Made by a program: the position numbers and the translations under genes. This document shows, in pieces, positions 30,488 through 32,087 of a stretch of DNA of 64,000 nt. Below the pieces are notes generated by a model that searched no databases, had not been told where the DNA came from, and worked only from the letters and a program-made list of their open reading frames with translations. The stretch lies in NCBI GenBank assembly GCA_910585375.1, contig CAJUCZ010000005.1, forward strand, positions 11,380 to 75,379, in the 5' to 3' direction. Source of the stretch: an uncultured Alphaproteobacteria bacterium. Its GTDB lineage: Bacteria > Pseudomonadota > Alphaproteobacteria > RF32 > CAG-239. Position 1 is the stretch's first letter, and each line of letters starts with the position of its first letter.

Positions 30488-31222
30488 TCAGCCGTCCCAA
30501 CCGCGACCTTCCGAGGTTTCCTCGTTCCAACCAAAGTCCGAAGCGGACGCACTGCCCTGCGTGCCATCGGCATTATAGCCGTTTCTTTCCGACGTTTCCT
30601 CATTCCAGCCGTAATCAGAAGCAGAGGAATTACCCGTGCCGTTTACGATATTCTGCAGGTCTTTGTTCAGCGCATCAACATTCGGCGCAGAACCTTCCGT
30701 GCCCGAAATTTTACCACCATCCAAAGCGCCGCCGATATTATCCTGACCGTTACGCTCCGAGGTTTCTTCGTTCCAACCGAATTTATCTTTTGCACCGTCC
30801 ACAACTTTCTCTGTATCGATTTTATTGCCTACGCTGTCAATTCCTTTATTAATTGCATCATCCACACCCAGTTTATCAAGCACACCGCCGCCGACAACAT
30901 CATTAACCTTATCTTTGGCCGCATTCAAAGCCTCTTGTTTTGCTTTTTCCAAAGCCTTTTTGGCTTCTTCTTCGGCTTTTTTCTTAGCTTCTTCCTTGCC
31001 TTTATTCCACAGATCATTCAGCCAGCCGCCATTATTTTCTTCCTGTTTGGCTCCGGCAGCACCGTCTTCTCCCTGCACCTGATTAACGTTGTTGACCATA
31101 TTCTGCAGGTCTTTGTTCAAATCATCAACATTCGGCGCTCCGCCGCCAATATTTTCCAGTCCTGAAACCGGATTATTGTTTGCCAAATTTTTATCACCGA
31201 TTATCTCAACTTCCGGCAACAT
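30488..31222 (-). CDS. G/N/D-rich repeat protein (244 aa), likely the 3' part of a phase-variable pilin-fusion gene
   Basis: Three (F/Y)GWNEETSERNG repeats and two APNVDxLNKDLQNxVN repeats. Its frame is open all the way up to the G10 tract at 31419-31428. Confidence 0.5.
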   Translation of the reverse strand: MLPEVEIIGDKNLANNNPVSGLENIGGGAPNVDDLNKDLQNMVNNVNQVQGEDGAAGAKQEENNGGWLNDLWNKGKEEAKKKAEEEAKKALEKAKQEALNAAKDKVNDVVGGGVLDKLGVDDAINKGIDSVGNKIDTEKVVDGAKDKFGWNEETSERNGQDNIGGALDGGKISGTEGSAPNVDALNKDLQNIVNGTGNSSASDYGWNEETSERNGYNADGTQGSASASDFGWNEETSEGRGWDG

Positions 31223-31415
31223 ATAGGATTGCGTTTCAGGATCCCATACCAGCTGCGAATTGCCGGCAGTATTTTGATTACTGTTGCCATTATTTTGAGC
31301 AGAAGAATTATTGCTGCTAACAGAATTACCAGAACCGGTATTGGTTGTACCGTTTGTACCACTGCTTTGATTGGTGCCGGAGGCACCTCCCGTTTTGGTT
31401 GCTTCCCCAGAGGAG

Positions 31416-32087
31416 CTACCCCCCCCCCGTTGTCCATAATTCTTCGACAGAAATTGATCCCGAACCGTCCTTTTTCATGCATTGATCACCTGAAAGAATA
31501 CCGCCTGCCGCCGTACATTTTTCAGCATTTTTGCCAGATAAATTTCGTAAGGAGACACAATTAGAATCACTAAAGCCATCACAATCTGCATTAAAACAAG
31601 GTTGCGCACATTTGTCCTCTTTTTTTTCTTTATTACAGTCATCCCCTGTACAATTTGGCAATGCATTACCATTTTGGGCGCCGCCAATACTTCCACCCGT
31701 TCCCTCAACACTGCCGTCCCCGCTCAGATAATTGCCGTAATCCAGCAAGGTTGAGTGTTTGCTGGTGCCGGTAAAGTCATCAATAAACAAGCCCATAACG
31801 GAGAGCAAAAACAGCGAAATCGCAATATTGGCAAACCACTTCCAGCTGATTTTGTTGAAAATCGCCATAAAGGAAAAGCCGATTAACCCGAAACCTGCCA
31901 AAATATAAACGACAAGCTTGATATCTTTTAAGCTGGAAGCCGCTTTATCACGTACTTTTTCAAAGACGGAACCGCTTGCCGCAAAGACGTCTTGCGGACA
32001 GGCCGCAAAAAAAACAATTGTCACGACAAAAAGGAAAAGGTTTGATTTCAGCAATGATTTTAATTTTAACATGGCCGCCTCCAACAA
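31416..32087 (-). CDS. virB2: VirB2/TrbC-like pilin paralog 3 with a Cys-rich C-terminal extension (223 aa)
   Basis: Signal peptide (VFAASG) and two hydrophobic helices (LVVYILAGFGLIGFSFMAIF; FANIAISLFLLSVMGLFI), as in VirB2. The extension has 9 Cys and ends TTGGG* inside the G tract. Confidence 0.6.
   Translation of the reverse strand: MLEAAMLKLKSLLKSNLFLFVVTIVFFAACPQDVFAASGSVFEKVRDKAASSLKDIKLVVYILAGFGLIGFSFMAIFNKISWKWFANIAISLFLLSVMGLFIDDFTGTSKHSTLLDYGNYLSGDGSVEGTGGSIGGAQNGNALPNCTGDDCNKEKKEDKCAQPCFNADCDGFSDSNCVSLRNLSGKNAEKCTAAGGILSGDQCMKKDGSGSISVEELWTTGGG
31419..31428 (-). repeat. Homopolymeric G10 (C10 on the plus strand) slipped-strand tract at the 3' end of a pilin paralog
   Basis: Ten consecutive C on the plus strand. 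A G9 variant shifts 31416-32087 into the frame of 30488-31222 with no intervening stop. Confidence 0.8.

Follow-up and report, generated by a model that had tools for sequence, protein, structure and literature searches.

The locus described here raises a simple question: do two neighbouring open reading frames (ORFs) represent two genes, one gene disrupted by error or decay, or one gene whose product can be switched between two lengths? It lies in a 64,000-nucleotide stretch of DNA from an uncultured Alphaproteobacteria bacterium (GTDB lineage RF32; CAG-239; assembly GCA_910585375.1, contig CAJUCZ010000005.1, positions 11,380 to 75,379 of the forward strand). We refer to this whole stretch as the window, and all positions are given within it. 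On its minus strand, the last of three genes for VirB2-like pilins of a type IV secretion system (T4SS) ends in a run of ten G residues (G10) directly followed by a stop codon, and a separate ORF of 244 amino acids (aa) is annotated downstream. A preliminary description of this region had proposed that loss of one G would fuse the two ORFs, and had named two possible explanations, phase variation and a sequencing error in the homopolymer. Our comparison with related loci favours the former: the gene quite probably switches between a short (218 aa) and a long (527 aa) VirB2 pilin by slipped-strand mispairing, a case of phase variation of the 'C-terminal' class.

The G10 homopolymer occupies positions 31419-31428 of the minus strand (C10 on the plus strand), with the in-frame TAG at 31416-31418, and the minus-strand sequence at this point reads GAA TTA TGG ACA ACG GGG GGG GGG TAG CTC CTC TGG GGA. 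The ORF at 31416-32087 has a TTG start at 32087 and an ATG at 32072 (218 aa), and its C-terminal end is TTGGG-stop, confirming on the sequence that the third pilin paralog ends in the G run with glycine codons and a stop. When the tract was shortened to G9 in a simulation, a single frame was open to 30488, with a product of 532 aa (TTG start) or 527 aa (ATG start), just as the preliminary description had predicted for the removal of one G. A simulated G12 tract gave 533 aa with the same end at 30488, while G8 or G11 gave 294-295 aa with termination in the third frame; this is the frame of a 93-aa ORF whose coordinates the preliminary description carries. The junction peptide of the long protein would be ...ELWTTGGGSSSGEATK, also given as DGSGSISVEELWTTGGGSSSGEATK.

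A homopolymer of this length is exceptional in its surroundings. Of the G/C runs in the window, 93 are 4 nucleotides long, 23 are 5 and two are 6, none measures 7-9 and one reaches 10, which makes the tract the sole G/C run of at least 7 nucleotides (nt) in 64 kb of DNA with a G+C content of 46.7%. Among the 1171 glycine codons of 29 long ORFs, GGG is the least used (8%), and GGGGGG encodes none of the 102 Gly-Gly dipeptides in these ORFs. Across 402 kb from 61 related species representatives, seven G/C runs of at least 7 nt were found, three of which are the tract at the same position. The tract exceeds the expectation by chance from codon usage and from the run-length spectrum.

Tract lengths among relatives were read from the assembled consensus contigs of public assemblies (loci are designated L and proteins P), and further assemblies of the window allele were found by looking up the 244-aa and 138-aa proteins encoded at the locus. 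A total of 25 related contigs read through the tract, with G10 and a split gene in 21 and G9 and a single ORF of 563-590 aa in four; no other length was seen among them. The G9 contigs are L001, L002, L092 and L093, and the G10 contigs are nine window-allele assemblies together with L003, L004, L029, L031, L032, L035 and L094-L099. Both lengths occur among loci that are 99.2-99.96% identical. L093 (G9) is 99.7% identical over about 2050 bp, with identical flanks, to L097-L099 (G10), which come from three different runs, and L092 (G9) is 99.2% identical to L095 and L096 (G10). L092 (28.9x coverage) and L004 (G10, 10.5x) show three differences in 6921 bp, all of them at the tract or at most 5 nt upstream of it. 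The encoded proteins display the same pattern: the short protein P0032 (7 contigs read) equals the long protein P0036 over 200 N-terminal aa, the short P0041 is identical to the long P0002, P0031, P0038 and P0028, and within the 90%-identity clusters concerned, 10 distinct full-length proteins stand beside seven distinct N-terminal pieces terminated at the tract. A neighbour-joining tree of 26 loci requires at least three independent changes of tract length.

More distant species are without the tract, which is found in 3 of the 61 GTDB species representatives that encode a relative. A scan of metagenomes from the Joint Genome Institute for the tract and its flank returned one relevant contig, L029. 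Another candidate from a metagenome pattern scan, L030, carries G11 next to a similar flank; its flanks proved unrelated, and it was treated as a chance match. At locus L006 (4001-5800, GCA_034116525.1) the tract is interrupted in frame (ACG GGG GAA GGT AGT), most of the linker rich in S, N, G and T that follows the tract elsewhere is deleted, and the gene is a single one of 599 aa. Judged by its interrupted run, this allele would be 'locked long' and unable to slip, as is seen at other contingency loci.

The relatives also show what the intact gene looks like. In a homology search with the fused protein, the single-ORF homologs P0001 (590 aa, 80% identity), P0002 (564 aa, 70%) and P0003 (599 aa, 49%) spanned 98-100% of its length, P0003 being from an NCBI Alphaproteobacteria metagenome-assembled genome (MAG), and P0001 and P0002 keep the junction TGGGSSSG intact. 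No full-length fused protein more than 80% identical to the window allele was obtained in this search. The protein P0052 (394 aa), considered as a possible read-through of the window allele, was rejected, since on its G10 contig the gene call had merely been extended upstream in another frame. The 66 codons that separate the 244-aa ORF from the tract evolve with a ratio of nonsynonymous to synonymous substitutions (dN/dS) of about 0.2 at dS 0.6-0.95 and hold zero in-frame stops in any lineage. The methionine encoded by the ATG at 31222, where the 244-aa ORF begins, is glutamate in other alleles, and in alleles without this ATG the gene callers resort to GTG or to out-of-frame ATGs upstream of the tract. 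Since single-ORF homologs cover the full span, the linker is coding-like and the ATG is not conserved, the two-ORF annotation, already held suspect in the preliminary description, is wrong; by this comparison the two ORFs are best read as one gene, with the long form as its intact form.

In each of the ten lineages examined, among them all seven with G10, the frame beyond the tract runs for 310-467 codons without a stop. Its dN/dS is 0.10-0.25, and for pairs of G10 alleles, with dS as high as 1.3, it is 0.10-0.20, no different from that of pairs that include a G9 allele and comparable to that of the pilin core (about 0.1). These rates indicate that the post-tract frame is under purifying selection.

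With regard to the protein itself, the 218-aa product matches the Pfam family PF04956 (TrbC/VirB2) with 31.4 bits against a cutoff of 27.9, and homologs bear the same family in precomputed annotation, which upholds the earlier identification of a VirB2-like pilin. The short form (31416-32072, minus strand, as are all parts of the gene) consists, when counted from the ATG, of signal peptide, VirB2 core, Cys-rich module and the GGG-stop end, and it is gene-called as 218 aa in other assemblies. Hydropathy restricts hydrophobic segments to residues 4-33, 48-75 and 78-101 and presents the rest, past residue 101 or so, as soluble. The predicted signal peptide (31980-32072, residues 1-31, ...QDVFA/ASGS) is based on hydropathy and an AxA-like site at which cleavage would take place. 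The VirB2/TrbC core (31806-32054), delimited by the Pfam match to residues 7-89 and by hydropathy, has two hydrophobic helices at about residues 48-75 and 78-101 and is the most conserved stretch of the family; the AlphaFold model of P0001 places the core helices at 36-71 and 77-101. A profile match, a signal peptide with two helices and a virB-type operon context thus all characterise the product as a member of the VirB2/TrbC pilins.

The Cys-rich module (31479-31652, eight cysteines) is hypervariable between strains. It lies upstream of the tract and so belongs to both the short and the long form; the preliminary description, which listed a Cys-rich domain together with the repeats of the fusion, is to be corrected on this point, the downstream piece being a linker followed by helical and short-motif repeat sequence. 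Between strains the module is swapped wholesale with flanks 92-95% identical, and blastn gives no match across it (window; L001-L004, L029, L031, L035). In alleles of the P0001/P0002 type (L001, L002, L092-L099) it contains a poly-Asn run, EEENNNNNNNNKNN.

What G9 would join to the pilin is a C-terminal extension of 310 codons and a stop (30488-31420). It starts with the S/N/G/T-rich linker of 66 codons (31223-31420), which the two-ORF annotation leaves as 'intergenic' and which is coding-like in its evolution and stop-free in every lineage. Its distal part is the annotated 244-aa ORF (30488-31222), made up of a K/E-rich helix and short-motif repeats, among them two APNVDxLNKDLQN motifs (31100-31138 and 30650-30688) and three GWNEETSE motifs (30755-30778, 30587-30610 and 30509-30532). 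The number of C-terminal modules differs between strains, giving 310-467 post-tract codons (L001-L004, L029, L031, L032, L035), and each module is about 83 aa long with APNVDxLNKDLQN, GWNEETSERNG and VWNPETQSYxLPEV motifs. Searched against Pfam, NCBIfam and PDB sequences, the extension returned low-complexity noise only (OmpH, TolA, FIVAR, scFv linkers) and no significant match. The AlphaFold model of P0001 is poor, with a mean predicted local distance difference test (pLDDT) score of 46.8 and a predicted template modelling (pTM) score of 0.22, and most of the chain is disordered; moderate confidence is confined to the VirB2 hairpin, a short helix and hairpin in the Cys module and the long K/E-rich helix.

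Taken as a phase-variable gene, the locus would work as follows. The tract lies at a boundary, with the pilin core and the Cys-rich module before it and the extension of some 310 residues after it. With G9 the ribosome would read on and produce the 527-aa long pilin, and with G10 it would meet TAG straight after the third Gly codon and release the 218-aa product. Slipped-strand mispairing during replication would alter the tract length, and we infer that the tract mutates in this way, often and reversibly within one clone, so that populations could hold, and be selected for, the short or the long form. As the core and the Cys-rich module precede the tract, the switch would be one of short versus long rather than on/off. 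The preliminary description had spoken of an ON state at G9 or G12; read-through at G9 holds, G12 was never observed, and 'ON/OFF' is imprecise for a gene whose core and Cys module are present in both states. In pilins of the VirB2/TraA type the C-terminus faces the periplasm and subsequently the outer surface of the pilus. Given this topology, the extension, which follows the second VirB2 membrane helix, would be periplasmic at first and then surface-displayed on the exterior of the pilus. The earlier designation as a 'pilin-tip' fusion is unsupported, as VirB2 is a shaft subunit and nothing speaks to a location at the tip. Hypervariability and switching may serve evasion of host immunoglobulin A (IgA), phages or competitors, or may modulate target binding. 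Three traits are in keeping with diversifying pressure on a surface structure: the cysteines are even in number, the Cys module is replaced wholesale, and strains differ in how many C-terminal modules they carry.

The locus shows the features by which contingency loci are recognised: an exceptional homopolymer of about 7 nt or more in coding sequence, a length that differs between close strains with conserved flanks, and an intact, selected part out of frame. It also shows those of C-terminal phase variation, in that the repeat lies 3' of a functional core and that G9 fuses the core to a 310-codon frame while G10 stops it.

Some observations weigh against this interpretation. G10 predominates (21 versus 4) and is by parsimony ancestral across lineages separated by dS of about 1, and both the window allele and the P0004-type lineage have only ever been seen as G10. 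Such stability exceeds what a fast switch might lead one to expect and leaves room for recoding from G10 templates. In addition, the pair L092/L004 differs by two substitutions adjacent to the tract that resemble Illumina errors beside a homopolymer, and the same applies to L016. Because these substitutions look like read errors, the tract call of L004 is less secure and the pair is the weaker for it.

Programmed recoding is the alternative that we weigh first, and we consider it unlikely. It holds that G10 is the native state, from which the long pilin is made at a set ratio, and that G9 alleles are 'locked long' mutants; it may also act alongside switching at the DNA level. Two routes are conceivable: a prfB-like +1 frameshift, in which the P-site tRNA-Gly slips from GGG to GGU while UAG is in the A site, aided by the G run as a Shine-Dalgarno-like element, or slippage of RNA polymerase on the C10 template. 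In its full form, with G10 as the normal working state, cells would make mostly short pilin and a fixed minority of long pilin, giving a T4SS pilus sprinkled with decorated subunits, and G9 and the interrupted allele would give all-long pili; this, too, we regard as improbable, and if true it would mean that recoding sets the composition of a T4SS pilus on top of a mutational switch in its pilin gene. Besides the predominance and inferred ancestry of G10 (21 of 25 contigs), the idea draws on the two G10-only lineages, in which purifying selection nevertheless constrains the extension no less than the pilin core, on the stop codon that directly abuts the tract in every allele, and on the fact that a +1 shift at GGG-U gives exactly the G9 protein. 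The prfB (RF2) cassette is AGGGGG-UAU-CUU-UGA, a G-rich Shine-Dalgarno-like stretch before a slippery codon and a stop, and the succession of G run, GGG and UAG resembles it. The match of GGGGGG-G-GGG-UAG to the pattern of slippery codon, stop and upstream Shine-Dalgarno-like element was made by eye, and any G10 followed by TAG would match. The likeness to prfB is one of resemblance only, and programmed frameshift sites are normally invariant, whereas the site here varies among homologs, with G9 alleles in at least four contigs and 10 distinct proteins and with an interrupted in-frame allele. No stimulatory RNA structure was predicted downstream of the tract (z = -0.26), and the window contains no Rfam match. 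Phase variation between a short and a long pilin is the preferred reading.

The remaining explanations fare considerably worse. According to the first, the tract length is a homopolymer sequencing or assembly error and the true state is G9 everywhere, with a single fixed ORF, which we judge to be very unlikely. Errors are common in homopolymers of some 10 nt, the contigs L005, L016 and L024-L026 break off in or close to the tract, and two assemblies have garbled bases beside it. On the other hand, nine independent assemblies of the window allele, 99.5-100% identical and obtained from different runs and with different assemblers, are all G10 with clean flanks (one of them, ERZ778507, at 26x coverage), six further contigs of another allele carry G10 with flanks identical to those of G9 contigs, and G9 and G10 are each found at more than 10x coverage. 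Random error would also be expected to give G8 and G11, and neither was found. For the window, sequencing error is refuted; of the two explanations in the preliminary description, phase variation is the one supported by the presence of G9 and G10 alone among nearly identical strains. As to the breaks, L026 ends inside the tract, L024 and L025 break 29 nt upstream, L005 opens with a Nextera adapter 20 nt downstream, and L016 starts 101 nt upstream and shows garbled bases and G9. Such breaks are compatible with mixed tract lengths and equally with poor homopolymer reads.

A fixed frameshift followed by gene decay, which would leave an unexpressed, pseudogenised 3' half in the G10 lineages, is in our estimation highly improbable. 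It could draw on the window allele and the P0004-type lineage being G10 throughout, but it is excluded because the post-tract frame is open and dN/dS is low even for diverged G10-G10 pairs; moreover, the G10 lineages contain no stops or further frameshifts, with the exception of the low-quality contig L021. In this contig (3440-4036, assembly of ERR3199638) the pilin is further split (115 + 73 aa) before the tract by one extra indel relative to the window, which may be an assembly error or a second disruption.

Two genuine genes, with the 244-aa ORF translated independently from ATG 31222 as the preliminary description had also allowed, have in their favour that gene callers annotate this ORF separately in at least 18 contigs, yet they are hardly credible in view of the absence of a Shine-Dalgarno-like sequence before that ATG, the Met-to-Glu change in other alleles, the purifying selection on the linker in the same frame, a 244-aa product with neither signal peptide nor hydrophobic segment, and intact homologs that are single ORFs.

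The closest known parallel is the C-terminal phase variation described for Neisseria gonorrhoeae (e.g. NGK_1211/NGK_1212) and also for Helicobacter canadensis and Streptococcus agalactiae (Zelewska et al. 2016, PMC5320596). There, too, a repeat 3' of the core of a surface protein alters the C-terminus, and one frame may fuse a downstream coding sequence, hence the annotation as two ORFs (PMC5320596). The present case differs in the size of the added segment (310-467 residues), in the protein concerned, a T4SS VirB2 pilin, in the host, an uncultured gut alphaproteobacterium, and in the evidence, which is metagenomic rather than experimental. Poly-G translational phase variation is likewise found in Neisseria pilC (Jonsson et al. 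1991, as cited in PMC5320596) and hpuA (PMC13532347), where a G tract of about 9-13 residues within the coding sequence for a surface or pilus-associated protein varies in length between strains and switches by frameshift. Those tracts lie near the 5' end, turn the whole protein on or off and concern type IV pili or receptors, whereas here a T4SS is affected and the core is made in both states. In Bartonella, also an animal-associated alphaproteobacterium, homopolymer variation between strains in T4SS-related genes has been read in terms of simple-sequence-repeat contingency loci, with candidates in virB9 (A8-9) and in a T4SS effector (PMC11466379). These are candidates only, and they involve poly-A, the channel protein VirB9 and ON/OFF switching, in contrast to the poly-G, the pilin and the change of isoform seen here. 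Finally, the bacteria-killing T4SSs of Xanthomonadales have VirB2 proteins that are longer than canonical ones through highly variable C-terminal extensions, proposed to serve pilus decoration or processing (Sgro et al. 2019, PMC6536674). Those extensions comprise tens of residues (mature pilins of 80-104 aa) with no phase variation reported, as compared with about 120 to more than 1200 residues in the family described here. Literature searches on phase variation of VirB2 and on the T4SSs of this gut clade yielded no specific report. The mechanism is a textbook one; within the literature searched, a VirB2 pilin is a new target for it.

The gene stands in a T4SS locus whose order of pilin, VirB3-sized ORF and VirB4 is identical in all related loci. 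It is preceded on the minus strand by VirB2 pilin paralog 1 (32550-32957; a 135-aa ORF, 128 aa in the gene calls of relatives; PF04956, 39.8 bits) and paralog 2 (32095-32511; 138 aa; PF04956, 28.0 bits). It is followed by the VirB3-sized ORF (30048-30350, minus), assigned to VirB3 by position and size only and without a Pfam match, and by VirB4 (27623-30154, minus; PF03135, CagE/TrbE/VirB). An intrinsic-terminator-like hairpin with a 13-bp stem and a T run (30426-30458, minus) is located 30 nt past the stop of the long ORF, and no terminator-like site was found on the minus strand between the G10 stop and 30488; that a strong terminator stands behind the long ORF alone is a further argument for a single gene. 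Further downstream on the same strand VirB4 is succeeded by two VirB5-like genes, a 1415-aa ORF, two VirB8 genes, VirB9/CagX, a 1054-aa beta-flower protein, TrbI/VirB10 and VirB11. The two VirB8 paralogs, the 1415-aa ORF (no Pfam match, placed where a VirB6-like protein might be expected) and two ORFs of 102 and 504 aa with similar VirB5-like N-termini lie at 17821-18564, 18958-19719, 19729-23976 and 25805-27545 (minus). Such duplicated components are, we take it, reminiscent of Rickettsiales-type T4SSs. The TrbI/VirB10 homolog has 1542 aa and six matches to PF21785 (5-fold beta-flower repeat), and the adjoining 1054-aa protein carries beta-flower and DUF3659 repeats (8365-12993 and 12996-16160, minus). 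The outer part of this T4SS, with the enlarged TrbI/VirB10 and the 1054-aa beta-flower protein, is unusually elaborate.

Divergent from the pilin genes, a 612-aa ORF without a Pfam match (33118-34956, plus) is 562 aa long in some otherwise near-identical strains (L020, L025, L092). A complete type IVb pilus cluster, also divergent, adjoins the T4SS pilin genes (35014-45717, plus) and encodes TcpQ, a secretin, PilO, a T2SSE ATPase and a T2SSF platform protein, as well as three bundlin/PilS-like pilins (43474-44034, 44207-44803 and 45091-45717, plus). The housekeeping genes accA and rmuC and an ABC transporter come after this cluster, which suggests a chromosomal location for the T4SS. The ORFs scanned against Pfam included neither a relaxase nor a coupling protein.

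VirB2 pilins with C-terminal extensions are common in MAGs of gut Alphaproteobacteria from human, mouse, deer and rabbit; they are represented by L031-L091, from 61 GTDB species representatives, and their total lengths are about 150-1390 aa. Many bear repeated C-x3-GG-x-W-x5-C loops and EEETPDExPLPGTGFE motifs, and the G tract is found only in the clade of the window. A VirB2 family whose extensions range from about 120 to more than 1200 residues appears to be undescribed, and how extensions of hundreds of residues fit into a pilus is a structural question that it raises.

The finding corrects the way in which dozens of public assemblies annotate the locus, with one pilin gene in place of two ORFs, and adds a T4SS VirB2 pilin to the genes under homopolymer contingency switches. 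The host clade consists of widespread, uncultured gut Alphaproteobacteria, with MAGs from humans (Hadza, Nepalese and Brazilian samples among them), mice, deer and rabbit. The hypervariable Cys-rich module, the variable C-terminal modules and the switchable extension point to a pilus under strong pressure from host, phage or competitors, and the tract length in each sample offers a handle on when these commensals display or hide a pilus structure.

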